From: Gammaproteobacteria bacterium
Lineage (GTDB): Bacteria; Pseudomonadota; Gammaproteobacteria; JAABTG01
Length of the DNA: 64,000 nucleotides
NCBI GenBank assembly: GCA_034522055.1
Contig: JAXHLS010000002.1
Span: forward strand, 2,497,549-2,561,548
Reading direction: 5' to 3'
Under the pieces are notes generated by a model. It did not search any database. It was not told the DNA's origin and was given only the letters and a program-made list of their open reading frames with translations. The translations under genes and the position numbers were made by a program. Below, in pieces: positions 1,904-61,237 of this stretch (the first letter of the stretch is position 1; every line of letters begins with the position of its first letter).

Positions 1904-3877
1904 ATGCAAAACCAATGGGACGATGAGTCTGTGGTCGCGTTCGAAGGGCCCCTCGGGCCGCGGGTCTACAGCTCCAGGCTGTTGGGCGCGGAGTCGGAGC
2001 TGGTGCTTCACGGTGGCGGCAACACCTCGGTCAAGGTGACGGAGCCCGATCTCTACGGCGAGCCCCGGGAAGTGCTCTATGTCAAGGGCAGCGGCTGGGA
2101 CCTGGCCCGCATCGAGGCCGCCGGTTTCGCGCCCCTGGACCTCGCCGGCACGGCGCGGCTGGCGACCCTGGAGCGTCTCTCGGATCTGCACATGATGGCC
2201 GAACTCAAGCGCCTGTGTCTGCGGGCCGAGGCGCCCACGCCGTCGGTGGAGGCCATCCTCCACGCCGTGCTGCCCCACCGCTATGTGGACCACACTCACG
2301 CCGACGCCGTGGTGAGCATCACCAACACCCCCGGCGGCGAAGGGCACATCCGAGAGGTCTACGGTGACGAGGTGGTGGTCATCCCCTATGTCATGCCGGG
2401 TTTCGACCTGGCCCGCCGCTGCGCCGCCGAGTTCGCCCGCCGGGCCGGACCCGCCACCCGTGGCATGGTTCTCATGAACCATGGCATCTTCAGCTTCGGC
2501 GCCAGCGCCCGGGACTCCTACGACACCATGATCGAGTTGGTGAGCCGGGCCGAGGCATTCCTGAAGGCCAGAGGGGCGTGGGCGGGGCCGCCCGCCGAAC
2601 CCGCAGGGTTAGCGTCGCCGCCGTTCCTGGCCCTGGCCCGGTTGCGCCGCGATGTGGCGGACGCCATGGGCCGGCCCTGCGTGCTGCGCCGCGATGCCGG
2701 GCCGGCGGTGGCCGCCTTCCTGGCCCGCCCCGACGTGGAGCGCATCACCCAGCGCGGGCCCGCCACGCCGGATCATGTCATCCGCACCAAGGCCGTGCCT
2801 CTGTGGGGGCGGGACGTGGCTGCCTATGGCAAGGCCTACCGCGCCTACTTCGAGCGCCATGCCGGCGCCGCGCGCACCCCCGTCACCCTGCTGGACCCCG
2901 CGCCGCGGGTGGTGCTGGACCCGGAACTGGGTCTGGTGGCCGTGGGCCGTGATGCCGGCGAGGCCGATGCGGTGGCGGACATCTATCGCCATACCATGGG
3001 CGTAATCGGCCGCGCCGAGGCCCTGGGCGGCTACCGCGCCCTGCCGGAGAAGGACCTGTTCGACATGGAGTACTGGGAGTTGGAGCAGGCCAAGCTGGCG
3101 CGGGGTGCCGGCGGGCCCGCCTTCCGTGGCGAGGTGGTGCTGGTGACGGGCGCGGCATCCGGCATCGGCCGGGCCTGCGTGGAGGCCTTCAGGGCCCGGG
3201 GCGCGGCGGTGGTGGCGGTGGATGTGGCGCCGGCGGTGGAGGCGCTGGACGACGGCGTGGGGGTACTCGCCGTGCGCTGTGATGTCAGCGACGAGGCGGC
3301 GGTCGCCGCCGCCCTGGCCCTGGCGGAACGTACCTTCGGAGGCCTGGACATGCTGGTGCTGAACGCCGGCTTATTCCCCGGGGGCACCCCCGTGGCCGCC
3401 GAGACGGCACAGCAGTGGCGCCGCGTCATGGCGGTGAATCTCGACGCCAACCTGTTCCTGTTGAAGCACGCCCATGGGCTCCTCAGGCTCGCGCCCCGCC
3501 ATGGCCGGGTGGTGGTGATGGGCTCCCGCAACGTGGCGGCGCCGGGACTGGGGGCGGCCGCCTATTCCGCCTCCAAGGCGGCCCTGTTGCAACTGGCCCG
3601 GGTCACGGCCCTGGAGTGGGCGCCCGATGGCATCCGCGTCAACATGCTGCACCCCGACGCTGTCTTCGACACCGGGCTGTGGACCGCCGAGGTGCTGGCG
3701 GCGCGGGCCGCCCACTACGGCCTGTCCGTGGAGGCCTACCGTCGGCGCAACCTGCTGAAGACGGACATCACCAGCCGGCGGGTGGCGGAGCTGGCGGCGA
3801 ACCTGTGCGGCGAGGACTACGCCTGTACCACCGGTGCCCAGCTGCCGGTGGACGGGGGCAACGAGCGGGTCATCTGA
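1904..3877 (+). CDS. bifunctional class II aldolase (rhamnulose-1-phosphate aldolase-like)/short-chain dehydrogenase
   Basis: 657 aa; N-terminal aldolase/adducin-like domain; C-terminal SDR with TGAASGIGRA Rossmann motif and YSASKAA catalytic motif. Confidence 0.75.
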   Translation: MQNQWDDESVVAFEGPLGPRVYSSRLLGAESELVLHGGGNTSVKVTEPDLYGEPREVLYVKGSGWDLARIEAAGFAPLDLAGTARLATLERLSDLHMMAELKRLCLRAEAPTPSVEAILHAVLPHRYVDHTHADAVVSITNTPGGEGHIREVYGDEVVVIPYVMPGFDLARRCAAEFARRAGPATRGMVLMNHGIFSFGASARDSYDTMIELVSRAEAFLKARGAWAGPPAEPAGLASPPFLALARLRRDVADAMGRPCVLRRDAGPAVAAFLARPDVERITQRGPATPDHVIRTKAVPLWGRDVAAYGKAYRAYFERHAGAARTPVTLLDPAPRVVLDPELGLVAVGRDAGEADAVADIYRHTMGVIGRAEALGGYRALPEKDLFDMEYWELEQAKLARGAGGPAFRGEVVLVTGAASGIGRACVEAFRARGAAVVAVDVAPAVEALDDGVGVLAVRCDVSDEAAVAAALALAERTFGGLDMLVLNAGLFPGGTPVAAETAQQWRRVMAVNLDANLFLLKHAHGLLRLAPRHGRVVVMGSRNVAAPGLGAAAYSASKAALLQLARVTALEWAPDGIRVNMLHPDAVFDTGLWTAEVLAARAAHYGLSVEAYRRRNLLKTDITSRRVAELAANLCGEDYACTTGAQLPVDGGNERVI

Positions 3878-4939: not shown

Positions 4940-5345
4940 CCCACCCGGCCCGGGGTGCGTGCGGCGGGGTTTGGATGTCGGGATGAATCCCGACCTACAA
5001 AAAGCGTAACCGCGAAAGACGCGAAATGACGCGAAAAGGGAGAAGGTCCGGGAGGAGTGGCAGTTCGAAAAGGCGCAGCGGATCCACCGTTTCGGCGTCA
5101 GCAGAGCGGACGCGCGGGTGGTAATCTTTTCCCATTTCCCATTTCCCATTTCCCCTGGGGAGAAGGACAGAGGCGTAGGTCGGCTGCTCTTGGCAGCCGA
5201 CGGAAACTCGGCGCTTTGCGGGCGCGGATGTCGGTTGCCAGGAGCAACCGACCTACATTCGTGCCCCGGGAACGTGCGGTGGTGGCGTACCTGTAGGTCG
5301 GGCTTCAGCCCGACAGCCCGCAGAGCCCGGGGTTCGCACGCAAGC
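4940..5345. repeat. composite REP-like intergenic element (copy A)
   Basis: Palindromes tcgggatgaatcccga and tcgggcttcagcccga; tandem (A/G)ACGCGAAA 9-mers; (CCCATTT)x3; ~330 bp about 95% identical to 22040-22360. Confidence 0.8.
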
Positions 5346-6350: not shown

Positions 6351-6629
6351 CTAACCCAGTTGATAGTGTTTCTTGACGGGGGAGCGGATGTCCCAGGTAC
6401 ACGCGAGCCCGGCGTCGAAGCGCACCAGGTCACCGCGTTTCAGGGTCACCGGCGCGCCGTCCTCCGGGGTCACCACGGCCTCGCCCTCCAGGATGTAGCA
6501 GGTCTCGGCTTCGTCGTAGGTCCAGGGGAACACCGAGATCTCTTTTTCCCACAGTGGCCAGTCTTCCACGCCCATCACGTCGAGCTTGGCGGGGGAGGGC
6601 TTGCTCTCGACGGTAATGCTGTCCATCAT
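6351..6629 (-). CDS. cupin-domain protein (DUF861/EutQ-like)
   Basis: 92 aa; small cupin beta-barrel signature (YILEGEAVVTPEDG...GDLVRFDAG). Confidence 0.6.
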   Translation of the reverse strand: MMDSITVESKPSPAKLDVMGVEDWPLWEKEISVFPWTYDEAETCYILEGEAVVTPEDGAPVTLKRGDLVRFDAGLACTWDIRSPVKKHYQLG

Positions 6630-6810: not shown

Positions 6811-7012
6811 TTAACTCTCATGGCGATACGCGCCACCCGAAATGATCAAAGAGGAGCGCGTATCGCCATGTTCGTTCCCTCACCCCATCGCTATACTCCG
6901 GGCATCCTGCCCTTCGCCCTGCGGGCCGCGCCAAGGCGCGTTCAAATCCGTTCCCGACGGATTTGTCCCAAAGGGAGAGGGGGAGATCGTGCTTCGCGAC
7001 TTTCACGTTAAC
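6811..7012 (+). repeat. MITE-like structured repeat element, long variant (copy 1)
   Basis: TTAACTCTCATGGCGATACGCGC ... GTGCTTCGCGACTTTCACGTTAAC; shares both ends with the copies at 12600, 16965 and 30684; carries a ~75-bp internal insert that the 129-bp variant lacks. Confidence 0.85.
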
Positions 7013-7029
7013 GAACAGGTAACAGCACC

Positions 7030-7452
7030 ATGGACACCAAGACTTCGGGTAATCGCATCAAGTCCTTCCAGACTGCAGGCGGGGTGGCGCTGACCTGGCT
7101 CCAGGATATTGGGCTATTGATCATTGCCATTGCAACCGTGGTGGCCATCGGCGACGAGATCGGCGTGATGTTCAGCGCCGGCAAGGTCACGTTGGCGGAC
7201 CTGCTGTTGCTGTTCATCTACCTGGAGATCCTGACCATGGTGGCGGTGTATCTCCAGTCGGGCAAGCTGCCGGTGCGGATCCCGCTCTACATCGCCATCG
7301 TCGCCCTGGCCCGTTACCTGATCCTGGACATGAAGAGTATGGACTACCTCGAGATGATCGGGGTGGCGGTGGCGGCACTGGTGGTCGCCGTGGCGATCCT
7401 GGTGATCAGGTACGGCCACGTGCGTTTCCCCTACGGTAAGGAAGAGGGCTGA
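7030..7452 (+). CDS. psiE: phosphate-starvation-inducible protein PsiE
   Basis: 140 aa membrane protein matching the PsiE family over its length. Confidence 0.75.
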   Translation: MDTKTSGNRIKSFQTAGGVALTWLQDIGLLIIAIATVVAIGDEIGVMFSAGKVTLADLLLLFIYLEILTMVAVYLQSGKLPVRIPLYIAIVALARYLILDMKSMDYLEMIGVAVAALVVAVAILVIRYGHVRFPYGKEEG

Positions 7453-10808: not shown

Positions 10809-12569
10809 TCAGCGCTTCTTCGGCGGCAGCAGGTCGGTGATGCTGCCGTCCACCATCTCCGCCGCGAAGGCGAAGGTCTCGGACAGGGTGGGATGGGGAT
10901 GGACGGTGAGGCCGATGTCCTGGGCGTCTGCGCCCATCTCCAGGGCCAGCACCGCCTCCGCCACCAGGTCGCCGGCGTGGGGCCCCACCATGCCGGCCCC
11001 GAGGATGCGCCCGCTCTCCTTGTCGAACATGATCTTGGTGACGCCCTCGTCGCGCCCCATCCCCAGGGAGCGCCCGCTGGCCGCCCACGGGAATACCCCC
11101 TTGTCGTACTCGATGCCTTCCGCCTTGAGTTCCTCCTCGGTGGGCCCCATCCACGCCACTTCCGGGTCGGTGTAGGCCACCGAGGGCACCGCGCGGGCGT
11201 CGAACACGGCGCGGTGGCCGGCGATCACCTCCGCCGCCACCTTGGCCTCGTGGGTGGCCTTGTGGGCCAGCATGGGTTGGCCCACCACGTCACCGATGGC
11301 GAAGATGTTGGACACGTTGGTGCGCATCTGGCGGTCTACTTTGATGAAGCCCCGCTCGTCCACGTAGAGGTGGGCCTGTTCCGCCCCCACGCGGTCGCCG
11401 TTGGGACGCCGTCCGGCGGCCACCAGCACGCGATCGAAGGTGGCGGTGGCCGGCGCCTTGGGGCCTTCGAAATGCACCTTGAGCCCCTTTTTCTGGGCCT
11501 CCACACCGGTGACCCTGGTATCGGTGTATATGCCCTCGTAGCGTTTGCCGATGACCTTCTGGAGGGGCCGCACCAGGTCCCGGTCGCAGCCCGGCATGAG
11601 GCCCTTGGTGAGTTCCACCACCGTGATGCGGGAGCCCAGGGCGGCGTACACGGTGGCCATCTCCAGGCCGATGATGCCGCCGCCGATCACCAGCAGGGAG
11701 TCGGGGATGTCCGCCAGTTCCAGGGCCCCGGTGGAGTCAATCACCCGCGGGTCGTCGTAGGGGATGCCGGGGATCTGGACCACCCGTGAGCCCACCGCCA
11801 CGATGGCGTGGTCGAAGCTGATGGTGCGCTCGCCGTCCTCGCCCGCCACCTTGAGGCGGTTGGCGGAGTCGAAGCGTCCCATGCCCTGTACCACCTTCAC
11901 CTTGCGTTGCTTGGCGAGCTGGGCGAGGCCGCCGGTGAGCTTGCCCACCACCTTGTCCTTCCACCCCCGCAGCCGGTCGAGGTCGATCTGCGGCTGGCCG
12001 AAGCTCACGCCATGGGACGCCATGGCGGCGGCGGCATCGATGATGCCGGCGGTATGGAGCAGGGCCTTGGAAGGGATGCAGCCCACGTTCAGGCACACGC
12101 CGCCGAGGTCCGGGTAACGCTCCACCAGCACCACCTGCTTGCCCAGATCGGCGGCGCGAAAGGCCGCCGTATAGCCGCCGGGGCCGGCCCCCAGCACCAG
12201 CACCTCGGCGTGGATGTCGCCATCTCCGGCGGTGGCCGGCTTGGATCCCCCTGTCGGCTTTTCTTTGGAAGACGCCCCGCCGTCCTCGTCCCTGGTCTTG
12301 TCTCCCTGCTTATCCTTGTCCTCATCCGAAGTGGCTTCGAGGGTAAGGATGGCATCGCCCTCGGATACCTTGTCTCCCACCTTGACGTCCATGGATGCCA
12401 CACGCCCCGCCTGAGGTGAGGGGATCTCCATGGAGGCCTTGTCGCTCTCCAGGGTGATGAGGGAGGTCTCGGCCGCCACCTCGTCTCCGGGGGCTACCAG
12501 GACCTCTATGACCTCGACCCCTTCGAAGTCGCCGATATCGGGTATCTTTACCTGAATGTTCTTTCCCAT
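10809..12569 (-). CDS. lpdA: dihydrolipoyl dehydrogenase (E3) with N-terminal lipoyl domain
   Basis: 586 aa; N-terminal lipoyl-attachment domain (SLITLESDKASMEIPSP); FAD and NAD Rossmann motifs; redox-active CLNVGCIPSK. Confidence 0.9.
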   Translation of the reverse strand: MGKNIQVKIPDIGDFEGVEVIEVLVAPGDEVAAETSLITLESDKASMEIPSPQAGRVASMDVKVGDKVSEGDAILTLEATSDEDKDKQGDKTRDEDGGASSKEKPTGGSKPATAGDGDIHAEVLVLGAGPGGYTAAFRAADLGKQVVLVERYPDLGGVCLNVGCIPSKALLHTAGIIDAAAAMASHGVSFGQPQIDLDRLRGWKDKVVGKLTGGLAQLAKQRKVKVVQGMGRFDSANRLKVAGEDGERTISFDHAIVAVGSRVVQIPGIPYDDPRVIDSTGALELADIPDSLLVIGGGIIGLEMATVYAALGSRITVVELTKGLMPGCDRDLVRPLQKVIGKRYEGIYTDTRVTGVEAQKKGLKVHFEGPKAPATATFDRVLVAAGRRPNGDRVGAEQAHLYVDERGFIKVDRQMRTNVSNIFAIGDVVGQPMLAHKATHEAKVAAEVIAGHRAVFDARAVPSVAYTDPEVAWMGPTEEELKAEGIEYDKGVFPWAASGRSLGMGRDEGVTKIMFDKESGRILGAGMVGPHAGDLVAEAVLALEMGADAQDIGLTVHPHPTLSETFAFAAEMVDGSITDLLPPKKR

Positions 12570-12599: not shown

Positions 12600-12728
12600 T
12601 TAACGTGAAAGTCGCGAAGCACCATCTCCCCCTCTCCCTCTGGGAGAGGGATGGGGTGAGGGAACGAACATGGCGATATGCGCTCCTCTTTCTTCATTTC
12701 GGGTGGCGCGTATCGCCATGAGAGTTAA
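12600..12728 (-). repeat. MITE-like structured repeat element, short variant (copy 2)
   Basis: TTAACGTGAAAGTCGCGAAGCAC ... CGCCATGAGAGTTAA; internal hairpins CCCTCTCCC/GGGAGAGGG and GGCGATATGCGC/GCGCGTATCGCC; sits between lpdA and aceF. Confidence 0.85.
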
Positions 12729-12735
12729 GTACGGA

Positions 12736-14100
12736 CTACAGCAGCATGTGCCGGATGTCCGAGAGCACGGTGCGCAGCTCGGTGGTGAAGCGAGCGGCGT
12801 CCGAGCCGTCGATGACACGGTGATCGTAGGACAGCGAGATGGGCAGCACGAGCCGGGGCACGAACTCACCGTTCTCGTATACCGGCTTCATCTCGGCCTT
12901 GGAGATGCCGAGGATGGCGACCTCCGGCGCGTTGATGATGGGCGTGAACCAGGTGCCGCCGATGCCCCCCAGGCTGGAGATGGTGAAGGTGCCGCCCTGC
13001 ATGTCCTTGGGGCCGAGCTTCCTGTCCCGGGCCTTCTGGCTGGCTTCGCCGAGTTCGGCGGCGAGCTGGAACAGGCCCTTCTGATCGGCGTTGCGGATGA
13101 TCGGCACCACCAGTCCGCCGGGGGTGTCCACGGCGATCCCCACGTTGAAATAGCGTTTGATGATCAGTTCGTCGCCGCTGGGTGCCAGGGACGAATTGAA
13201 GTGGGGAAATTTCTTCAGGGCCACCACTGCCGCCTTGATGAGGAAGGACAGCAGGGTGAGCCTGACCCCCTCCTTGGCGAGCTGGTCCTTCTTGCCCTGG
13301 CGGAAGTCCTCCAGCTCCGTGATGTCCGCCTCGTCGAACTGGGTGACGTGGGGCACGGTGATCCAGTTGCGGTGGAGGTTGGGGCCCGAAAGCTTCTTGA
13401 TGCGGGACAGGGGCTCGTGGTCCACCTCCCCCCACTCGCTGAAATCGACGTCCGAGAAGTCCGCCATCTGCAGGCCCACGGGGCCGGTGGGGCCGGAGCG
13501 CGTCATCACGTTCTTGACGAACTTCTGCACGTCCTCCTTGAGCACTCGGCCCTTGCGGCCGCTGCCGCTCACCTGAGCCAGGTCGACGCCGAGCTCGTTG
13601 GCCAGGTGGCGCACGGCCGGGCTGGCGTGGCCCTTGCCGCGCTGAGCCGCGGCGACCTCCCGGGGCGTGAGGTCCGGCACCGGCGGCGCGGCCGGGGCAG
13701 GGCTGCCCGCGGGGGCGCTGGTGGTGGCGCTCGAGGACTTCGACTTCCTGGCCTCGGCGTCGTCCGAGGCCGCCCTGGTCTTGTCCTTATGGGTTTTTTC
13801 CTCAGGTTCGCCTTCGTCCCTGCCCTTGTCTTCGTCCCCGGCGGCCTCGGCACGTCCCTGCTCCGCCTCGATGACGGCGATGAGGGCGCCTTCCGAGACC
13901 TTGTCCCCCACCTTCACCTTCACCGACTCGACGACGCCGCCATGGGGACTCGGAATCTCCATGGTGGCCTTGTCGCTCTCCAGGGAGATCAGGGAATCTT
14001 CTGCCTTTACCCGGTCGCCGGGGGCGACCAGCACTTCGATGACCTCGACATTCTCGAAATCGCCGATGTCGGGTACGAGCACCTCTTTTGCGGTCGCCAC
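12736..14100 (-). CDS. aceF: dihydrolipoamide acetyltransferase (E2) of pyruvate dehydrogenase
   Basis: 454 aa; lipoyl domain, E3-binding domain, catalytic domain ending in the DHRVIDG motif. Confidence 0.9.
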   Translation of the reverse strand: MATAKEVLVPDIGDFENVEVIEVLVAPGDRVKAEDSLISLESDKATMEIPSPHGGVVESVKVKVGDKVSEGALIAVIEAEQGRAEAAGDEDKGRDEGEPEEKTHKDKTRAASDDAEARKSKSSSATTSAPAGSPAPAAPPVPDLTPREVAAAQRGKGHASPAVRHLANELGVDLAQVSGSGRKGRVLKEDVQKFVKNVMTRSGPTGPVGLQMADFSDVDFSEWGEVDHEPLSRIKKLSGPNLHRNWITVPHVTQFDEADITELEDFRQGKKDQLAKEGVRLTLLSFLIKAAVVALKKFPHFNSSLAPSGDELIIKRYFNVGIAVDTPGGLVVPIIRNADQKGLFQLAAELGEASQKARDRKLGPKDMQGGTFTISSLGGIGGTWFTPIINAPEVAILGISKAEMKPVYENGEFVPRLVLPISLSYDHRVIDGSDAARFTTELRTVLSDIRHMLL

Positions 14101-16788: not shown

Positions 16789-16964
16789 GGGTTTCTCGTC
16801 GAGTTCGTCGTTATTGGGAATCCTGACCGGCGCGGGAGCGGGATTGCATACATCCCTTCGCAGCCGGGCCCGTCGCCACCGCCGCCGATGCTCTGCGCTG
16901 CCCGCGCCGCCGGCGGCTCCAGCCGCTGCCGGGGCGGGCGTTAAAAAGGCCGCTAGTTTAACCT

Positions 16965-17088
16965 AACTCTCATGGCGATACGCGCCGCCCAAGATGATGA
17001 AAGAGGAGCGCGTATCGCCCTGTTCGTTCCCTCACCCCATCCCTCTCCCAAAGGGAGAGGGGAATCGTGCTTCGCGACTTTCACGTTA
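16965..17088 (+). repeat. MITE-like structured repeat element, short variant (copy 3)
   Basis: Same ends and internal hairpins as copy 2, opposite orientation; immediately upstream of aceE. Confidence 0.85.
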
Positions 17089-18022: not shown

Positions 18023-18346
18023 TTACTTGCTCTCGGAGGCCTGGGGGGCAGCCGGGGCGACCGGGGCGACCGGGGCGACGGGGTGGCCGTAGGCCGGATA
18101 GCCATAGCCGGGGTAGCCGTAGGCGGGATAGCCGCCGTAGTAGGGGGCGCCGTAGCCGTAGCCACGACCCCAGCCGCGGCCGCCGCCGGACCAGTTCATG
18201 TTGAAGTCGCCGAACATGTCGCCGAAGCCGTCGCCCCAACCGCTCCAGGGACCACCACCGTAGCCCGGGCCCCACCATGCATGGGCGGTACCGGCGGAAG
18301 CGGCGAGAATGGCGACAGCGGCGATGGTTTTTGCTATGTTGCGCAT
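18023..18346 (-). CDS. Gly/Tyr-rich secreted protein, sulfur-globule-protein (Sgp)-like
   Basis: Start at MRNIAKT (GGAGAT RBS); signal peptide; [26 protein letters not shown] repeats as in Sgp envelope proteins of sulfur oxidisers; paralog at 30931. Confidence 0.6.
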
Positions 18347-18557
18347 TTGGATATCTCCACGTTTGTGCTTGTTCAATCTTCAGGGTTCGTTGTGTCGGCG
18401 TTCTATCGCTGCCTGACGATGATTAGTATATTACTACGTACGAATATTACAACGTAAGAGATTTTATACTGCATAAAATTCTCTTATTTTGCCGAGGGCC
18501 GGCCCTTCGCCCCCATTCATCCGCCCGCCGCGGGCGTCCCACGCCGGGACGAGTTCC

Positions 18558-21194: not shown

Positions 21195-21962
21195 ATGGAT
21201 GGTTTCCTGCTGTCCAAGTTTGTGGCCGCCTGGCTGCTGCCGCCGGGCGGGCTAATCATCGGCCTGGTCCTCGGGCTGGCGCTGCGTCGGACATGGCGCC
21301 GCGCCGGAAACCTGCTCATAGGGTTGTCCCTGGCGGCCCTGGTGGCCCTTACCAGCCCGCCGGTGGCCCACCTGCTGATGAGTGGCCTCGACCGTTATCC
21401 GCCCCTCACCACCGGAGCCCTGAAGGACCACCGGCCCGAGGTCATCGTTGTGCTGTCCGGTGATCGTCGCGAGGAGGCCGCGGAGTACGGCGGCGATACC
21501 GTGGGAACCGCCACCCTGGAGCGCCTGCGCTACGGGATCCGCCTGAACCGCGCCACCGGCCTGCCCCTGTTGCTCAGCGGCGGCTCGGTGAGCGGCGACG
21601 ACGACTTCTCCCTGGCCTTCCTCATGAAGGAGGCGGCCGTGGACGATTTCCGCGTGCCCGTGGTGTGGCTGGAGGAGGAGAGTCGCAATACCTGGGAGAA
21701 CGCCGTCTACAGCGCGGCCGTGTTGGAGCATGAAGGGATCTCACGGATCCTGCTGGTGACCCACGCCTACCACATGCCCCGATCGATGGCCTGCTTCGAG
21801 GCCGCCGGCATGGAGCCCCGGGCCGCGCCCACCGGCCTGATCGGGCCCCTGGACATGAAGGCCACGGACTGGATACCGAGCAGCAAGGCCCTGGTGGCAA
21901 GCACCCTGGCCCTCCACGAGTACCTCGGCATGGTGTGGTACCGCATCAAATACGACCTGTAG
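21195..21962 (+). CDS. DUF218 (YdcF/ElyC/SanA family) protein
   Basis: 255 aa; N-terminal TM segment then a DUF218-like domain. Confidence 0.6.
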   Translation: MDGFLLSKFVAAWLLPPGGLIIGLVLGLALRRTWRRAGNLLIGLSLAALVALTSPPVAHLLMSGLDRYPPLTTGALKDHRPEVIVVLSGDRREEAAEYGGDTVGTATLERLRYGIRLNRATGLPLLLSGGSVSGDDDFSLAFLMKEAAVDDFRVPVVWLEEESRNTWENAVYSAAVLEHEGISRILLVTHAYHMPRSMACFEAAGMEPRAAPTGLIGPLDMKATDWIPSSKALVASTLALHEYLGMVWYRIKYDL

Positions 21963-22486
21963 GTCGGGCTGTAGGTCGGACTTCAGTCCGACAGCCCGCG
22001 GCTGGTACCGCCCCGGCCCGGGGTGTGCGCGGCCGGCCTGAATGTCGGGATGAATCCCGACCTACAAAAAAGCGTAACCGCGAAAGACGCGAAATGACGC
22101 GAAAAGGGAGAAGGTCAGGGAGGAGGGGCAGTTCGAAAAGGCGCAGCGGATCCACCGTTTCGGCGTCAGCAGAGCGGACGCACGGGTGGTAATCTTTTCC
22201 CATTTCCCCTTTCCCCTTTCCCCTGGGGAGAAGGACAGAGGCGTAGGTCGGCTGCTCCTGGCGGTCGACGGAAACTCGGCGGTTTGCGGGCGCGGATGTC
22301 GGTTGCCGAGAGCAACCGACCTACATCCGTGCCGATGGAACAGGCGGTGGTGATGTATCTGTATGTCGGGCTGTAGGTCGGACTTCAGTCCGACAGCCCG
22401 CGGCTGGCACCGCCCCGGCCCGGGGTGTGCGCGGCCGGCCTGAATGTCGGGATGAATCCCGACACAGAGCGACACACCCTGCCGGT
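21963..22486. repeat. composite REP-like intergenic element (copy B)
   Basis: Same ~330-bp core as 4975-5300, flanked on both sides by gtaggtcgggctgtaggtcggacttcagtccgacagcccg palindromic units. Confidence 0.8.
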
Positions 22487-30581: not shown

Positions 30582-30683
30582 GTCCAGACCGGCCGCTGGT
30601 CTTGCCTCCGGGGCAATTTCGGGGGCTTGGGGTCGGAGGATGAGGGGCGGGCGGATAGGTTTGCGGGTCGTCGTGGACGGGGT

Positions 30684-30885
30684 TTAACGTGAAAGTCGCG
30701 AAGCACGAACTCCCCCTCTCCCTCTGGGACAAATCCGTCGGGAACGGATTTGAACGCGCCTTGGCGCGGCCCGCAGGGCGAAGGGCAGGATGCCCGGAGT
30801 ACAGGGATGGGGTGAGGGAACGAACATGGCGATAGGCGCTCTTATTTCATCATCTTGGGCGGCGCGTATCGCCATGAGAGTTAAC
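30684..30885 (-). repeat. MITE-like structured repeat element, long variant (copy 4)
   Basis: TTAACGTGAAAGTCGCGAAGCAC ... GCCATGAGAGTTAAC; contains the same ~75-bp insert (with AAATCCGTTCCCGACGGATTT and CGCGCCAAGGCGCG palindromes) as copy 1. Confidence 0.85.
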
Positions 30886-30930
30886 GCGGCGCGCGTGACG
30901 TCACGCGCGCCGCGCCTGGGTGCATCTATT

Positions 30931-31296
30931 TTACTGGTTGGAGGAACCCTGGGGGGCGCTGGGGGCGGCCGGATAGCCACCGTAGGCTGGGGCCGGGTGG
31001 CCGCCGTAGGCCGGGTAGCCACCATAGCCCGGGTAGCCGCCATAGCCCGGATAACCGTAAGGACCGTAGCCGCCATAGTAGGGGGCGCCATAACCGTAGC
31101 CGCGACCAGAGCCCCGGCCGCTGCCGGTCCAGCTCATGTTGCCGCTTCCGAACATGTCACCGAGGCCGTCTCCCCAGCCACTCCAGGGGCCGCCGCCGTA
31201 ACCTGGGCCGCCCCACCATGCATTGGCGGACTGCAGAGGCAGAGCGGCGGCGCCGAGGATGGTGGCGACTGCGGCTGCTTTAGCGAGTGCTTTCAT
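30931..31296 (-). CDS. Gly/Tyr-rich secreted protein, sulfur-globule-protein (Sgp)-like, paralog 2
   Basis: 121 aa from [10 protein letters not shown] (AAGGAGAG RBS); signal peptide; [24 protein letters not shown] plus GYG/PYG repeats nearly identical to the 18023 paralog. Confidence 0.6.
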
Positions 31297-31513
31297 ACAT
31301 CTCTCCTTAGTCTTATAAACAGCAAAACAGATAGCAGACTGACGTGTTCGACCGCCCACCGCGACCCCGAACGAGCGGGTGGACGATCCAAATCAAGTTT
31401 CGCACCGCTAGTAAGGTGATTCAACTCTGCCGTTGATCTGAATCCCCAGGTCGGGGTGCGAAACGTGTACGCGCCGGCTTACCTTGAGGCGGAGCGCGTG
31501 ATAGAAATGCGCC

Positions 31514-53107: not shown

Positions 53108-53677
53108 GCAAAGTGGTTCTCAAGCCCGCAAATATTCCGGCTATATCCGGATCTCGCCGCGCCCCGATGGCTCGTATTGCCAGGCCAATCAGTCGCTGTA
53201 GCTGGCTGTAAAAACCCGCGCATATCTGGCGAAGGATTGATTGCCAGGCCAACCAGTCGCTGAGCCGGCTGGCGGGCGGCCGCGAGCAACCGGTGACAAG
53301 AGTGCCGGAATCGGGTAGATGAAGAGGGGCCGTTGAGACAGGTGCGATACCGGGTGTAATTGACTTGGCCGTCGACCCCGGTATCGCACCCCGGGCCGTG
53401 CAGAGCACGTGCCCGCACACTATTTCTCGTTTTCCCCTGACAATCAAGTGCGCATTCCACGCCATTCGCAGATCAAGTCCTCATCTCTCTTCATCGGGGC
53501 AAAAGTAAGCCCGCAGACTGGCTGCCACCGGCATCCGACGGTTTCGCCCCACAGGCGCCGAGCACGCGCAGCTGCCACCGTCCATCTCGCCGTGGGGAGG
53601 CCCGGCCCGTAGGTCGGCGGCTCTTGGCAGCCTACGGATAAGAAAGCTCGCGCCATGACTGCCTGCATTCATGAGTG

Positions 53678-56600
53678 CCCGTACTCAGGCCACGGCTGAA
53701 TGCCGCGGATAACGGGCTGGTGGATGAGGGATACCGCCCCGGCCGCAAACAGCTTCAGTGAGGCCGCGGCTGAAAGCCGCGGATAACCAAGACCAAGCCC
53801 GCGGGCAAGCTGGCGGATGTGGTGCTTCAATGAGGCCGCGGCTGAAAGCCGCGGATAACTGGAAACGAATGGGCCGGGGGGCACGGAGCCGCACCCGCTT
53901 CAATGAGGCCGTGTTGTTTCGCGGCTGAAAGCCGCGGATAACGGTGTTGGCCTCGCCGGCGGCGTAGGCGGGGCCCATGCTTCAATGAGGCCGCGGCTGA
54001 AAGCCGCGGATAACCCAGCTTGTGGGTGAAGGCCTACCGCAGCAAGAACCAGCTTCAATTAGGCCGCGGCTGAAAGCCGCGGATAACGCCGGGGCGCAGG
54101 TGGGGCGGGACGTCGGCGGCATCGCTTCAATGAGGCCGCGGCTGAAAGCCGCGGATAACCACTCAGGACCTTGCGCAGATTGCAAGTTTTCCGCGGCTTC
54201 AATGAGGCCGCGGCTGAATGCCGCGGATAACAGGGCGTGGCCTACGACCAGGTGAAGTGGATCGAGGTGGCTTCAATGAGGCCGCGGCTGAATGCCGCGG
54301 ATAACCCGAGAATGGTGTTTGCGCTCGCACGGTCTGTTGCCGCTTCAATGAGGCCGCGGCTGAATGCCGCGGATAACCCGGCATGTCCACCGGAACGACA
54401 CCAGTAATGGCCAGGCTTCAATGAGGCCGCGGCTGAATGCCGCGGATAACGCGTATATTCGGCGTCTGCTCGCTCCTCCAGATACGGCTTCAATGAGGCC
54501 GCGGCTGAATGCCGCGGATAACGGCCGAGGCCGCGTATCTGGGCCTGCAATCCATCGCGGCTTCAATGAGGCCGCGGCTGAATGCCGCGGATAACCCAGC
54601 ACACAACCCATGCCAGGACGGCTACAGCGGGCTTCAATGAGGCCGCGGCTGAATGCCGCGGATAACGAGGCCTGGGCGTACTGGCTCAAGGTCAAGGCAA
54701 CGCTTCAATGAGGCCGCGGCTGAATGCCGCGGATAACTCGGCATCGTCGCAATCAGCGGCGTGTTTGAGTTCCCGCTTCAATGAGGCCGCGGCTGAATGC
54801 CGCGGATAACGCGCCGGAAGGGTACAGTTCCACCGCCGCGCAAAATGCTTCAATGAGGCCGCGGCTGAATGCCGCGGATAACCTGGCCGCGGGCGAGGAG
54901 GTGGGCGTCATCGACAGGCTTCAATGAGGCCGCGGCTGAATGCCGCGGATAACAAGCGGGCCGAGGGTCTGAGCCGCAGCCTGCAAATCGCTTCAATGAG
55001 GCCGCGGCTGAATGCCGCGGATAACGGTCTACCTCCCGCACACCGAGGGCCTGAATACCAAGCTTCAATGAGGCCGCGGCTGAATGCCGCGGATAACCTT
55101 CGGCGTGAGGCTGGAACCACTTCCTGTCATTCGGCTTCAATGAGGCCGCGGCTGAATGCCGCGGATAACGCCAGACAAATGAGGCCACCTACAGGAGACA
55201 CCATGCTTCAATGAGGCCGCGGCTGAATGCCGCGGATAACAGCGAGGAGGCCCTGAGGACCACTGTGACGCAAGATGCTTCAATGAGGCCGCGGCTGAAT
55301 GCCGCGGATAACGCAGACCCTGGAAGCGGCACCAGTGGACACAGGCGGCTTCAATGAGGCCGCGGCTGAATGCCGCGGATAACGCACGGGCACGGGTGGT
55401 CAGGGGTCGCACGGGCTTAGCTTCAATGAGGCCGCGGCTGAATGCCGCGGATAACGCACGGGCACGGGTGGTCAGGGGTCGCACGGGCTTAGCTTCAATG
55501 AGGCCGCGGCTGAATGCCGCGGATAACTGCGAGGCGAGATTCGCCAGGGCGGAGCAGGTGACGCTTCAATGAGGCCGCGGCTGAATGCCGCGGATAACCG
55601 GTAACGGCGTGACCGTGCTCGACGTGGACATTGCGGCTTCAATGAGGCCGCGGCTGAATGCCGCGGATAACCAGAGCATGGACAGCAACATGCCGGACCT
55701 GTAGCGCTTGCTTCAATGAGGCCGCGGCTGAATGCCGCGGATAACGTACTTGGTGTTCCCGTAGGCTACGTGGCGGTCCTTGCTTCAATGAGGCCGCGGC
55801 TGAATGCCGCGGATAACTCCACCTGCCCGACGACGTGGACGAGGACTACTGCGCTTCAATGAGGCCGCGGCTGAATGCCGCGGATAACGATGCCTGTAAG
55901 GGATATGACGGCGGTCTTTACAGAGCTTCAATGAGGCCGCGGCTGAATGCCGCGGATAACGGTGCCAGGTGTTCCCGTCCGCCGGGTCGCCGCCGAGCTT
56001 CAATGAGGCCGCGGCTGAATGCCGCGGATAACATCGGGTAGTAGGTTCTCCTCTTGAAGATTTTTCATGCTTCAATGAGGCCGCGGCTGAATGCCGCGGA
56101 TAACCACGTGGTGGCCCTGGCTCCCAACTCACCTACACTAGGCTTCAATGAGGCCGCGGCTGAATGCCGCGGATAACCCAGGGTATGCAGACGGCGCTTG
56201 AGGTCTCGCCGCAGCTTCAATGAGGCCGCGGCTGAATGCCGCGGATAACATGGAAGAACGGGCCTTCAGGGCGACAGACTACGCAGGCTTCAATGAGGCC
56301 GCGGCTGAATGCCGCGGATAACTGGTCTGCCACACCACCACGGGCGTCACCAGGTACACGCTTCAATGAGGCCGCGGCTGAATGCCGCGGATAACGTACT
56401 TGTCGAATAGCCAGGCCTGCTTGGCCTCGGTGCTTCAATGAGGCCGCGGCTGAATGCCGCGGATAACATCGCCGACAGCAACAAACTCCGCCGGATCGCC
56501 ATCGCTTCAATGAGGCCGCGGCTGAATGCCGCGGATAACTTGCGGCATCCCGCCGCGAATCACCCCCGGAGGTTGCCGCTTCAATGAGGCCGCGGCTGAA

Positions 56601-56828
56601 TGCCGCGGATAACCCTGTACGACAGAGATGGGCCACGCGTTGACGGTATGCTTCAATGAGGCCGCGGCTGAATGCCGCGGATAACTACGAACCGCCGAAG
56701 ATCTTGCTGACCCTCCTTAAGCTTCAATGAGGCCGCGGCTGAATGCCGCGGATAACGCCGCAATACTTGCTTCGCGGGAGGAGACATAAGATGCTTCAAT
56801 GAGGCCGCGGCTGAATGCCGCGGATAAC
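53678..56828 (-). CRISPR. CRISPR array, 44 repeats of 36 bp (plus strand GCTTCAATGAGGCCGCGGCTGAATGCCGCGGATAAC), ~35-37 bp spacers
   Basis: Minus-strand repeat GTTATCCGCGGCATTCAGCCGCGGCCTCATTGAAGC has a 7-bp stem and ends in an ATTGAAGC 5'-handle-like 8-mer; the AT-rich leader and cas2 are at the 56.8-kb end; the first ~7 repeats at the 53.7-kb end are degenerate (AAAGCC for AATGCC, and one 46-bp repeat with an insertion). Confidence 0.95.
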
Positions 56829-57350: not shown

Positions 57351-59060
57351 TCACCGGGTCGTGAAATTGGGATTGTCGTCGAGGTCGCCGAGCAGGTAGC
57401 GGCCAAGCAACCGGCCCTGGAGTTCCAGCAGCCGCCGGTAACTGAGCCGGTAGCCGAAGATCGGATGGGTGATCTCCTGGCTTAGGCGACGCTCGTACGC
57501 GGTGATGAAACGCTTGCGGCCATCCGGGGTGAGGTTCACGGCGCCTGCGGCGGTGACGAAATCCGATGGCCGCACCTCGCCATTATTGATGGCCTGGATG
57601 ACGCTGGAGTCGGCGAGCAGGGGTCTGAAGGGTTCCATCATGTCCAGGGCGAGGGCAGGGCGGCCATATCTGGGCTGATGATAGAAGCCGCGAAAGGGGT
57701 CGAAGCCCACGGCTCCGAGGGTAACCGCCCAGGTGCGGGACAGCAGCGAATAGGCATAGGACAACAGTGCATTGACGGGGTCGCGGGGCGGGCGCCGGTT
57801 GCGCTGGGTGAAGTCGAAGGCGAAGGTGGCCTCCGGGGTCTCGGCCTTCAAAAGGTTTCGGAAAGCACCGAAGTACTTTGCCGCGGCGCTGCCCTCGATG
57901 CCGAGCAGCTCCTCAAGATTGCGGCAGCGCAGGGCCTCTTCCGAAAGGTGCTTGAGGTCTCTGAGCAGCCGTTCCGGCTTCTCGTCGAGGCGCCAGTTGC
58001 GGCGCAGCAGGGTGCGGCTGTTCTGGATCTTAGCCCGTACCCAGCCCTTCGCCAGATGCAGGCAGACTTTCTCGTCGAAGCTCTCCCGATACTGAGCGGT
58101 GCGCAACTCCACGTTTTTGTGACCGTTGCCGATGGAGTGGCCGAGGAACCAGCCGCCATAGCTGTGCCAGGTGACGGGGATATCCCTGCGCATGAGCTCG
58201 TGGAGGGTGGGCGTCGTGAGATAGACGTTGCCCATGAGGACCACCTGGGAGATGTCGATCAATCGCACATGAGCCGCCGGTTTGTCATCGACGGAGACTT
58301 CCAGGGTCTCACCCTTCTTGCGCACCGCCGCCTTGTTGGCCTGGACATACAGTGGCAGGGCCTCGTCCCGCCCCACGGCAAGGGGGCGAGGGGGTGTTTC
58401 GGTTCGCCGCAGATAGTTGACCTCGTCCGGCAGGCAGATCCCCACCAGCGAGCAACGCGGACACTTGGGGCTGTCTTCCAAGGGCACCGGCATGCGCCCT
58501 CCGACAGCCACCAGACGCAATCCGTTGACGGCCGAGCGGGTACGATTGCGCAACTCCTCGTCGAATTCGACGGTTACCCGTTCCTTCGACTCGACGAAGT
58601 AGAGGATGCCATGGTCGCAATGGTAACCATGCTCCTCGAGAATGAGGCCCTGCACGCAAAGCTGCACCCGCTCGGGTTCGTAGGCACCCTTGGCGACGTG
58701 GGGGCGCTTGCCCCGCTTGTAGTCCACGGGTACCACTTCTTCCCCCTCGCCCTCCACCAGGTCCAGCTTGGCGATGAGCCCGATCTTGCGGGAGGACAGG
58801 GTAATGGACTTGGCATGGAAGGTCTCGTATTCCTCGGCCTCCCCAGGGTCCGGCAGCTTGCCGCCAGGCTTGTCCACCCGGCGATGCCGGTATCGCCCTT
58901 CCACCGTATCGGCGGAGTCCGCCCATTCCCCCTGGACCCATTCCAGATAGGCCAGGCGCGGGCAGTATTCGTACTCGTTGACCATGCGCGCCGGCAGCAG
59001 CGGCAGGTCTTCGGACAACTCCGGGAAGCTGAAGGGCAGTTCAGGTTGCTGGTCGGTCAT
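57351..59060 (-). CDS. cas1: Cas4-Cas1 fusion protein
   Basis: 569 aa; N-terminal Cas4 RecB-like nuclease with 4Fe-4S cysteines (YEYCPRLAY ... CPRCSLVGIC); C-terminal Cas1 (NALLSYAYSLL ... MMEPFRPLLAD); this fusion is the hallmark of type I-U/I-G. Confidence 0.9.
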   Translation of the reverse strand: MTDQQPELPFSFPELSEDLPLLPARMVNEYEYCPRLAYLEWVQGEWADSADTVEGRYRHRRVDKPGGKLPDPGEAEEYETFHAKSITLSSRKIGLIAKLDLVEGEGEEVVPVDYKRGKRPHVAKGAYEPERVQLCVQGLILEEHGYHCDHGILYFVESKERVTVEFDEELRNRTRSAVNGLRLVAVGGRMPVPLEDSPKCPRCSLVGICLPDEVNYLRRTETPPRPLAVGRDEALPLYVQANKAAVRKKGETLEVSVDDKPAAHVRLIDISQVVLMGNVYLTTPTLHELMRRDIPVTWHSYGGWFLGHSIGNGHKNVELRTAQYRESFDEKVCLHLAKGWVRAKIQNSRTLLRRNWRLDEKPERLLRDLKHLSEEALRCRNLEELLGIEGSAAAKYFGAFRNLLKAETPEATFAFDFTQRNRRPPRDPVNALLSYAYSLLSRTWAVTLGAVGFDPFRGFYHQPRYGRPALALDMMEPFRPLLADSSVIQAINNGEVRPSDFVTAAGAVNLTPDGRKRFITAYERRLSQEITHPIFGYRLSYRRLLELQGRLLGRYLLGDLDDNPNFTTR

Positions 59061-60298: not shown

Positions 60299-61237
60299 CT
60301 ATAAGACTTCGCTTGGTGCGAAATTGCCATAGCCTCCCTGATCGGAGCGGTGGATACGCGATTGCAGGACGCAGCCAATGCCACGAGCCACTCGCTCGCG
60401 CGCCCTCATATCGGGCAAGCCCGGCAGGTTCATCAGAACCTCGGCAGTGCGTATGGTGCAATCCCGCGTCCATAGGGGCCAGCGGAAGCCACCGTTTTTC
60501 CAACCGCCATAACAGCCAGTGGTTACCAGCCTTGTACCCACAGCGAAGCTGCGTAGTACGGCCAAGCCGCGAAAAGCGAGCCAATCGGCACCGGGTACGC
60601 CGAGCTTCTTGTCGGTCGAAGGATTGCTGGCACGGAGGGCGTAGTCCCGAGTCACGGTCGAGTCCCATCCGAGCACTGGCATCGGCCGGGAGTAGGTCCA
60701 CGGTCCAAACAGCGCTTCTGCAAGGTCCTCCCTGGTAACTCCCTTTCCGTCATATCCAGCGAGAGTTGCTGCCATGTGAAGAAATTCCTGTTGCCCGGCA
60801 GTGAAATGCAATGGAAAAGGCTTTGTGGCCCCGTTGTTATCGACTACACCCTCGGCCGCGAACGCTGCGGCGTACTGCGCCGCTCGTCTTCCCTTGGCTG
60901 AGTCTTCATCAAGCAGCTGCTGGAGGTAGGCACGGAAGCGGGGCGGTGGTGGTTTCAGGTCCCACGCGAGCCTTTCAGGTTTGTCCTTGTGCTTCGGATA
61001 CCGCAGGTCTAATGTTGCATCGTGGGGCCAGCAAATAGTTGCATCAGCTTCCAGGAAATCCAGAAGCTCTTCACGGTTGAGCAAACTGCACAATTGCGGT
61101 ATCCAGGTTCCGTCTTGCCGCCAAGTTAACCGCGGGGCTTCGCCAGACTGTTCACTCAAAACTCGCAGCGCGCCCATTGCAGCCAGAAACCCTAACGGGT
61201 TGGTTCCGTCCAGTCCAGGCAATACCAATGTGTTCAT
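60299..61237 (-). CDS. CRISPR-associated effector subunit (possibly Cas7/Csb1-like)
   Basis: 312 aa; start overlaps the cas3 stop (translational coupling); position and size fit the Cas7 slot of I-G loci; no motif-level confirmation possible here. Confidence 0.45.
   Translation of the reverse strand: MNTLVLPGLDGTNPLGFLAAMGALRVLSEQSGEAPRLTWRQDGTWIPQLCSLLNREELLDFLEADATICWPHDATLDLRYPKHKDKPERLAWDLKPPPPRFRAYLQQLLDEDSAKGRRAAQYAAAFAAEGVVDNNGATKPFPLHFTAGQQEFLHMAATLAGYDGKGVTREDLAEALFGPWTYSRPMPVLGWDSTVTRDYALRASNPSTDKKLGVPGADWLAFRGLAVLRSFAVGTRLVTTGCYGGWKNGGFRWPLWTRDCTIRTAEVLMNLPGLPDMRARERVARGIGCVLQSRIHRSDQGGYGNFAPSEVL

Follow-up and report, generated by a model that had tools for sequence, protein, structure and literature searches.

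The DNA analysed here is a stretch of 64,000 nucleotides (the window) from a gammaproteobacterium of the lineage JAABTG01, corresponding to positions 2,497,549 to 2,561,548 of contig JAXHLS010000002.1 (assembly GCA_034522055.1). It carries the pyruvate dehydrogenase genes aceE, aceF and lpdA, the psiE gene and a gene for a protein resembling sulfur-globule proteins (the Sgp-like gene). Beside these genes lie four copies of a short intergenic repeat, which we refer to as c1 to c4. The forward strand of the repeat is defined as that reading TTAACGTGAAAGTCGCGAAGCAC ... CATGAGAGTTAA. Pairwise identity between the copies is 90.6–94.5%. The copies fall into two size classes, which differ at one internal point, where the long copies have exactly 72 bp more. 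A preliminary description of this DNA had already recognised four copies in two size classes, and both invariant k-mers and alignments confirm this. Three invariant 21–23-mers match only c1 to c4 when up to 3 mismatches are allowed; the number expected, from 100 shuffles, is 0.

Results

The repeat copies and their neighbours

Coordinates are listed in Table 1. The element proper, ACGTGAAAG...CATGAGAGT, begins with ACGTGAAAGTCGCGAAGCAC and ends with CGCCATGAGAGT, the junctions being TA/ACGTGAAAGTCGCG and CGCCATGAGAGT/TA; its length is 123 bp in c2, 121 bp in c3 and 195 bp in c1 and c4. The boundaries first proposed for c2 are borne out. Those of the other copies shift slightly: the long copies, of 201 bp with their TTAA ends, stop at 7011 and 30884 rather than at 7012 and 30885, and c3 starts at 16964. 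The positions before psiE (c1, with 18 nt between its end and the gene), between lpdA and aceF (c2) and upstream of aceE (c3) are as originally described. However, c4 is downstream of the Sgp-like gene, 46 nt past its stop codon, and not upstream. Orientation relative to the flanking genes is mixed: c2 is antisense, c3 is sense and upstream, and c1 is reversed before psiE.

The Sgp-like gene encodes a Gly/Tyr-rich product with a signal peptide. It has a paralogue in the window, also Gly/Tyr-rich and secreted, and the two share 80% identity across a 177-nt stretch (repeat D8). Both resemble sulfur-globule proteins; the Pfam SGP match is weak and under the curated cut-off.

Table 1. Coordinates of the repeat copies, their neighbours and other features of the window.
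Feature	Position	Strand	Remarks
c1, long form	6811–7011	minus	element proper 6814–7008
c1 TA duplications	6812–6813 and 7009–7010		target GT-TA-AC
Nested module in c1	6892–6965	minus	junctions same as in c4
Cupin gene	6351–6629	minus	one side of c1
psiE	7030–7452	plus	other side of c1
c2, short form	12600–12728	plus	element proper 12603–12725; occupies the lpdA/aceF spacer, antisense to the operon
c2 TA duplications	12601–12602 and 12726–12727		
lpdA	10809–12569		neighbour of c2
aceF	12736–14100		neighbour of c2
c3, short form with 2-nt deletion	16964–17088	minus	element proper 16966–17086; 175 nt upstream of aceE, past the terminator of the upstream gene
c3 TA duplications	16964–16965 and 17087–17088		flanks C-TA...TA-G
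aceE	start 16788		neighbour of c3
Terminator of the upstream gene	17204–17175		
c4, long form	30684–30884	plus	element proper 30687–30881; within a convergent gene pair
c4 TA duplications	30685–30686 and 30882–30883		
Nested module in c4	30730–30803	plus	about 74 nt, net +72 bp
NAD-dependent dehydrogenase gene	ends 30581		neighbour of c4
Sgp-like gene	30931–31359	minus	stop 30931; neighbour of c4
Sgp-like paralogue	18023–18376	minus	
GTAG-headed REP clusters	4999–5298, 21957–22463, 40058–40337, 43282–43396, 44690–44837		
IS110-family transposase gene	43416–44549	minus	Pfam DEDD_Tnp_IS110 and Transposase_20
CRISPR array, Cas4-Cas1 fusion, Cas3 with C-terminal HD	53824–56828, 57351–59060, 61234–63933		Rfam CRISPR-DR16, 40 repeats reported
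Duplicated leader-like segment	50562–51312 and 53139–53788		a few degenerate repeats; 2.5 kb upstream of the CRISPR array

Copies outside the window

Databases were scanned with the exact 21-mer of the left end. The 185,579 species genomes (one each) gave 1 match, a diverged copy in a more distantly related metagenome-assembled genome (MAG), PPR_0564 (L001). The 241 million metagenome records also gave 1 match (L002), a copy that is 87–91% identical and lies between an upstream gene and ligA. In L007 (related MAG GCA_011389995.1), xseA and a DUF218 gene flank a further diverged copy, at 1988–2108. One match per collection indicates that the family is lineage-restricted and rare in public data. 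Viral contigs yielded 3 matches to a 16-mer, which were due to chance and did not extend, and none to a 24-mer. The 7.4 kb to the left of the window (L015) hold no additional copy, and a literature search for the terminal sequence found nothing. A Logan assembly contig from the same organism (L003) breaks within c1, as assemblies do at multi-copy repeats.

Insertion sites are empty in relatives and the duplicated target is TA

The preliminary description had proposed comparing occupied and empty sites in relatives so as to define the target duplication. We reached the orthologous loci via AceF homologues in L007 and L008 (each 86% identical), L009 (89%) and L010 (78%). The aceF–lpdA spacer is 42 bp, with a single TTAA, in L007, L008 and L009. 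In the window it is 166 bp and the element lies between two TTAA sequences. The empty site is CCTTAACGCTCAAGC, read ...TAG-N8-TTAACGCTCAAGC, and the occupied site is ACTTAA-element-TTAATGCTCAAAC. Upstream of aceE, the empty site of L007 and L009 is ...CTCATTTAGGTTAAACTAAG, reading ATT-TA-GGTTAAAC. The occupied counterpart is ...CCATC-TA-(ACGTG...GAGAGT)-TA-GGTTAAACTAG, i.e. ATC-TA-element-TA-GGTTAAAC. Thus, one TTAG is present when the site is empty, and CTAA (left) and TTAG (right) when it is occupied. The element is also absent from the cupin–psiE spacer of L007, an 86% relative. Hence, relatives are empty at all three testable sites, the opposite of what a vertically conserved regulatory site would show. 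The alternative first held out, that these are the only copies and that they reside in orthologous spacers conserved among relatives, fails accordingly.

In L010 (ENA XULI22-1 scaffold_1495) the aceF–lpdA spacer has a different hairpin-rich filler of 186 bp (2515–2700), unrelated to the repeat. Here another small element seems to have entered the same spacer in a separate event.

The extent of the duplication follows from the flanks. The ends of c3 read CTAACGTG...GAGAGTTAG, i.e. CTAA...TTAG. The flanks of L002 are CTAA...TTAG and those of L007 are TTAA...TTAG. Together with the empty and occupied aceE sites, the c3, L002 and L007 flanks show that TA alone is duplicated and that the inner A and T belong to the element. 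The seven copies come from four genomes or metagenomes, and six of them have TA at both ends; the decayed L001 keeps the left TA alone. Outside the TA, the bases are T..A in three copies, C..G in two and T..G in one, a YTAR-like preference (Y, pyrimidine; R, purine). Beyond YTAR the flanks have nothing in common. The duplicated target is the 2-bp TA within YTAR, not TTAA.

TTAAC ends had been ascribed to all copies, and piggyBac-like transposition with a 4-bp TTAA duplication was among the drivers suggested. TTAA does flank c1, c2 and c4 on both sides, and the empty aceF–lpdA site has one TTAA. However, c3 is bounded by CTAA...TTAG, and the flanking 4-mers are unequal in 3 of the 7 copies (c3, L002 and L007), where only TA is shared. 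Moreover, the empty site upstream of aceE is TTAG and the occupied left flank is CTAA. PiggyBac-type transposases are not known from bacteria. A TTAA-specific element is, on these data, extremely unlikely.

We conclude that the repeats are probably an undescribed family of non-autonomous miniature inverted-repeat transposable elements (MITEs), which insert at TA and are mobilised in trans. The positions beside genes would then be incidental.

The element is non-coding and strongly folded

The forward strand folds into three hairpins. The small 5′ hairpin is CGUGA-AAG-UCGCG. Hairpin 2 is CCCUCUCCC-UCU-GGGAGAGGG, extended by CAUCUC/GGGGUG, and the long 3′ hairpin is AUGGCGAUAYGCGC...GCGCGUAUCGCCAU. 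For the short form, the minimum free energy is −62.5 kcal/mol (z = −5.4) on the forward strand (ACGTG...GAGAGT) and −50.8 kcal/mol (z = −4.1) on the reverse. The corresponding values for the long form are −87.4 kcal/mol (z = −3.2) and −81.3 kcal/mol (z = −4.1). The folding energies substantiate the hairpins noted previously, except that the arm given as GGCGATA(T/C)GCGC has a third version, GGCGATAGGCGC, in c4.

The element encodes no transposase, as had been observed. A GTG-started frame (38/62 amino acids) is broken in c3, c4 and L002, and a coding peptide was rejected on this ground. The translated element, reverse-frame alignment included, matched none of 5.8 billion proteins. ARAGORN detected no tRNA-like gene, and a 5S-rRNA-like origin of the backbone (CCATGAGAGT against CCATGCGAGAGT) was dropped for want of covariance-model support. 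The broken frame, the folding and the empty sites together uphold the view that this is a MITE-like structured non-coding repeat.

Folding of this kind is also what a vertically inherited regulatory element, or small RNA (sRNA) family, controlling the pyruvate dehydrogenase operon, psiE and the Sgp-like gene might display. The copies are intergenic and beside metabolic genes, and 3 C-to-T changes found in L002, all within the big hairpin, leave G-U pairs when the forward strand is read. The preliminary description had taken the placement as a sign of a transcribed or regulatory element and listed spread as a structured sRNA among the mechanisms. Neither idea is supported by comparison with relatives, where the same intergenic sites are empty at 3/3 testable loci; this largely refutes the regulatory explanation. 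The mixed orientation of c1, c2 and c3 argues in the same direction. The element was scanned for sigma-70-like promoters, and none was found. Terminator-like matches do not exceed the number expected by chance, and the copies contain just one, in c3, with a weak stem of 5 pairs. Rfam has no family for the element at gathering or lenient thresholds. We therefore give the regulatory explanation very little credence.

The ends bear on a different mechanism, insertion by a site-specific or RNA-guided recombinase acting in trans (of the IS110 bridge-RNA type or the IS607 type), with TA as the crossover core. Good inverted repeats are lacking, and the ends are alike as direct repeats (ACGTGAAAGT against CCATGAGAGT, 7/10). 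An IS110-family transposase gene is present in the window. However, the insertion sites share just YTAR and no extended target, and the IS110 copy, whose ends are different, lies in a repetitive extragenic palindromic (REP) sequence. We regard such a recombinase as very unlikely. Compared as inverted repeats, end-anchored, the left end and the reverse complement of the right end agree at 13/25 positions in c2 (p = 0.005) and at 14/25 in the L007 variant (p = 0.0025).

Hairpin 2 is a widespread short repeat

Turning to the make-up of the proposed MITE, hairpin 2 plus GGGGTGAGGG (element nucleotides 24–66; CCCTCTCCC-NNN-GGGAGAGGG-NN-GGGGTGAGGG) matches a short repeat widespread in proteobacteria. 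It occurs in records of Klebsiella, Enterobacter, Aeromonas, Azospirillum, Variovorax and Xanthomonas, and at 1–5 places per Escherichia coli genome. Examples are at cstA/yjiX in K. aerogenes, at ypfG/tkt in E. coli and as an inverted pair in Variovorax. The motif is intact in the short form, which is therefore ancestral.

This resemblance, with the hairpin-rich and intergenic character of the element, might suggest that a REP-associated tyrosine transposase (RAYT) has spread it as an element of the REP/BIME type (a REPIN), as had been proposed. We find this the least credible of the schemes considered. The TA duplication and empty sites fit cut-and-paste, and REP elements make no target duplication. 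The element has no GTAG head, and the window has its own, separate REP family of the GTAG type (GTAGGTCGGGCTTCAGCCCGAC). No RAYT gene was seen among the open reading frames scanned.

The long form contains a nested module

The extra 72 bp of the long form is a true nested insertion. The preliminary description was right to see an extra module in two copies; its length is 72 bp exactly and not ~75 bp. Of the two origins then offered, the nested insertion stands and the modular sRNA gene does not. In the 3′ arm of hairpin 2 the module takes the place of 2 nt, and the enclosing helix is kept, the 5′ arm CUCCCCCUCUCCCU pairing with AGGGAUGGGGUGAGG. Both long copies have identical junctions, which indicates that the module was inserted once and that the long form then transposed.

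The site patterns of c1 to c4 are incompatible with one another. The nested module unites c1 and c4; at three linked loop sites of the 3′ hairpin, c1 agrees with c2 and c3 with c4; at another site, c2 agrees with c4. This implies that the copies are mosaics, produced by recombination or gene conversion among dispersed copies.

Four small hairpins make up the module, and two have GGA in the loop. The module is 79–80% identical to rrB/rrF, which lie 3′ of 5S rRNA in E. coli, Salmonella and Klebsiella. These belong to the tRNA-linked repeat (TLR) family, are transcribed with rRNA, and bind Hfq and CsrA in vitro via GGA motifs (PMC8144298). The core common to the module, rrB, rrF and the tyrT TLRs is GAACG-hairpin-CGGCCCGnAGGGCGAAG-hairpin-GAGTA. 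The GGA loops conserved in the window modules are UCGGGAA and GGGCAGGAUGCCC; the latter presents the GGA core of the CsrA-binding motif in its loop.

Related inserts occur in enterobacterial repetitive intergenic consensus (ERIC) elements. The module is 80% identical to a ~70-bp insert of the ERIC element (high-pathogenicity island) upstream of ybtA, found on Salmonella plasmids (L019). An ERIC copy of Yersinia pseudotuberculosis, in the serC–yadA-like spacer (L021), holds two modules of ~73 nt (177–249 and 303–379), one per arm and in the same orientation, scoring 60 and 80 bits with covariance model R1. The ERIC insertion point adjoins the ERIC2 primer site AAGTAAGTGACTGGGGTGAG. An ERIC size class with a ~70-bp insertion was reportedly noted by Wilson & Sharp in 2006, and Cromie, Collins & Leach (1997) are said to have described 'interruptions that keep RNA folding'.

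The structure of the module is supported by covariation. In alignment A9 (7 sequences), 86.8% of cells are paired, compared with at most 47.7% when partners are slid. Seven pairs are changed on both sides, and the covariation score was reached by 0 of 500 shuffles. Compensatory changes fall in three helices of the module/TLR alignment. Model R1 scores the c4 module at 95.6 bits and the c1 module at 96 bits; these two, and both L021 inserts, were among the sequences from which it was built. The tyrT TLRs, excluded from its building, are found at E about 0.007–0.01. R1 detected no further module in the window or in relatives.

One further layer, compatible with a TA-inserting MITE, is co-option: the long form would bring an RrB-like CsrA/Hfq-binding module into host transcripts, and certain copies would then regulate at the RNA level. 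This accords with the homology of the module to RrA, RrB and RrF, which bind CsrA and Hfq in vitro via GGA motifs (PMC8144298), and with conservation of both GGA-in-loop hairpins in the window copies, in a structure backed by covariation. However, there are just two long copies, and they have opposite orientations with respect to neighbouring genes. Mispairs in the module are 6 G-U against 6 A-C, and so give no strand bias. Co-option in this sense is improbable, though less so than the rival mechanisms of insertion.

Other features of the window

The window's GTAG-headed REP family (GTAGGTCGGGCTTCAGCCCGACAGCCCG) is clustered at five places and is unrelated to the MITE. The IS110-family transposase gene is inside one REP cluster (43282–43396 and 44690–44837), with the junctions GCGCTGTAG/ATACTCC and AACATACA/AGGTCGGGCTTCAG. 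The uninterrupted paralogous cluster at 40058–40337 represents the pre-insertion arrangement. As a driver of the MITE this transposase was rejected; its ends and its REP target differ.

The right-hand part of the window holds a large CRISPR array with genes for a Cas4-Cas1 fusion and Cas3. The system is apparently of type I-G (formerly I-U). Upstream of the array lies a duplicated leader-like segment.

Comparison with known repeat families

ERIC elements, also called IRU, are intergenic, non-coding, strongly folded and TA-flanked (PMC3184786). At about 127 bp, the ERIC/IRU sequences of Enterobacterales are close in size to the 123-bp MITE, which shares all of these properties. ERIC also has a longer class, formed by an internal insert of ~70 bp that is homologous to the 72-bp module, and both families contain the short motif TGGGGTGAG(C/G)GAACG. 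Conversely, the backbones are not homologous. A BLAST search of the whole MITE against 5,426 E. coli genomes matched only the module and the hairpin-2 motif; plasmid BLAST likewise returned module or motif only. The ERIC halves in L019 and L021 do not align with the MITE backbone. ERIC forms a long, nearly perfect palindrome whose ends are clearly inverted; the MITE has three hairpins in an asymmetric chain, and its ends are only weakly inverted. Its host, a distant uncultured gammaproteobacterium, is unlike those of ERIC.

The TLRs (RrA, RrB, RrF and RtT of E. coli; Rfam RF00391) have their core, compensatory helices and GGA loops in common with the 72-bp module. Their GGA loops are implicated in CsrA binding, and the repeats, reported from Enterobacterales only, lie downstream of a tRNA or rRNA gene and carry an 18–19-bp copy of the 3′ end of that gene (PMC8144298). 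The module differs in that it sits in MITE sequence with no 18–19-bp gene-end copy; at most, a GGGA repeat flanks it. The window has no tRNA or rRNA genes according to Rfam and ARAGORN. The Rfam RtT model (RF00391) had no match at E up to 10 on 30600–30960. With this model E. coli rrB itself scores 17 bits, the gathering score being 45. To our knowledge, TLRs have been without a clear origin or function since 1978.

Correia/NEMIS of Neisseria and RUP of Streptococcus pneumoniae are about 100–160 bp, non-coding and often co-transcribed, with a TA duplication and size subfamilies (PMC3184786). They resemble the MITE in size, TA duplication and size classes, and have no sequence similarity to it. 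They also have clear inverted ends of 20–30 bp. In contrast, the MITE ends are weak, and a partner insertion sequence was not found for it. RUP has been linked to IS630-Spn1. REP/BIME/REPIN sequences are short intergenic palindromes, as is the MITE; REP has a GTAG head and no target duplication, and for the MITE the reverse is true.

Discussion

The MITE would insert at TA, usually within T-TA-A or C-TA-G, and duplicate the TA. Since there is no conserved reading frame, a transposase encoded elsewhere must move the element. Its TA duplication, its preference for YTAR and the weakness of its terminal inverted repeats all speak for a driver of the IS630/Tc1-mariner type, and we suggest that a DDE transposase of this kind acts in trans by cut-and-paste. 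IS630/Tc1-mariner transposition is the standard source of TA duplications with CTAG- or TTAA-like targets. Its hallmark, a TA duplication that is often in CTAG or NTAN, is seen in this family. The element body may be a hairpin chain assembled from modules, with the 195-bp subfamily having arisen by acquisition of the nested 72-bp module. The positions at the pyruvate dehydrogenase genes, psiE and the Sgp-like gene would be accidents of insertion into tolerant intergenic DNA. Any effect on neighbouring transcripts, via co-transcribed hairpins, would be secondary and is putative.

Several observations weigh against a TA-inserting MITE of this description. Seven copies were examined in all (c1 to c4, L001, L002 and L007), and the c4 locus stands outside the empty-site comparison because the contigs of the closest relatives are too short or the gene order is different. 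The terminal inverted repeats are weak: their 25-bp identity is ~52–56%, and local alignment gave nothing significant. A partner transposase was not found; the only transposase gene of the window is of the IS110 family, with unrelated ends. The L001 copy has an uneven pattern of conservation. Over its first 24 nt (3295–3318; TTTAACGTGAAAGTCGCGAAGCAC), which take in the T of the flank, the TA and then 21 element nucleotides, it matches the window copies at every position. The remainder, of ~100 nt, is ~75% identical, with degraded hairpins, and the right TA is lost. Plain MITE decay does not account for this, and the left end may be under some additional constraint. Constraint from transposase binding, gene conversion or some other role of the left end are possible.

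The similarity of module, TLR core and ERIC insert suggests that the unit may move between repeat families and across large phylogenetic distances. A bolder proposal is that the module, starting ACAAATC and ending GAGTA, is an ancient, independently spreading structured unit of Gammaproteobacteria, for which MITEs are vehicles that scatter CsrA/Hfq-binding hairpins into many transcripts. We put this forward tentatively and consider it rather unlikely.

The MITE is a new, rare family in a poorly sampled gammaproteobacterial lineage. The apparent 'bracketing' of the pyruvate dehydrogenase genes is best read as insertion history and not as regulation. A structured unit of ~72 nt is found in three settings: the TLR sRNAs of E. 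coli, ERIC elements and an unrelated MITE. A TLR core that moves between repeat families and across orders would offer a handle on the origin and function of TLRs, and the module may be treated as a mobile or recombining cassette. If true, an independently spreading module would link three repeat classes that are usually handled separately.

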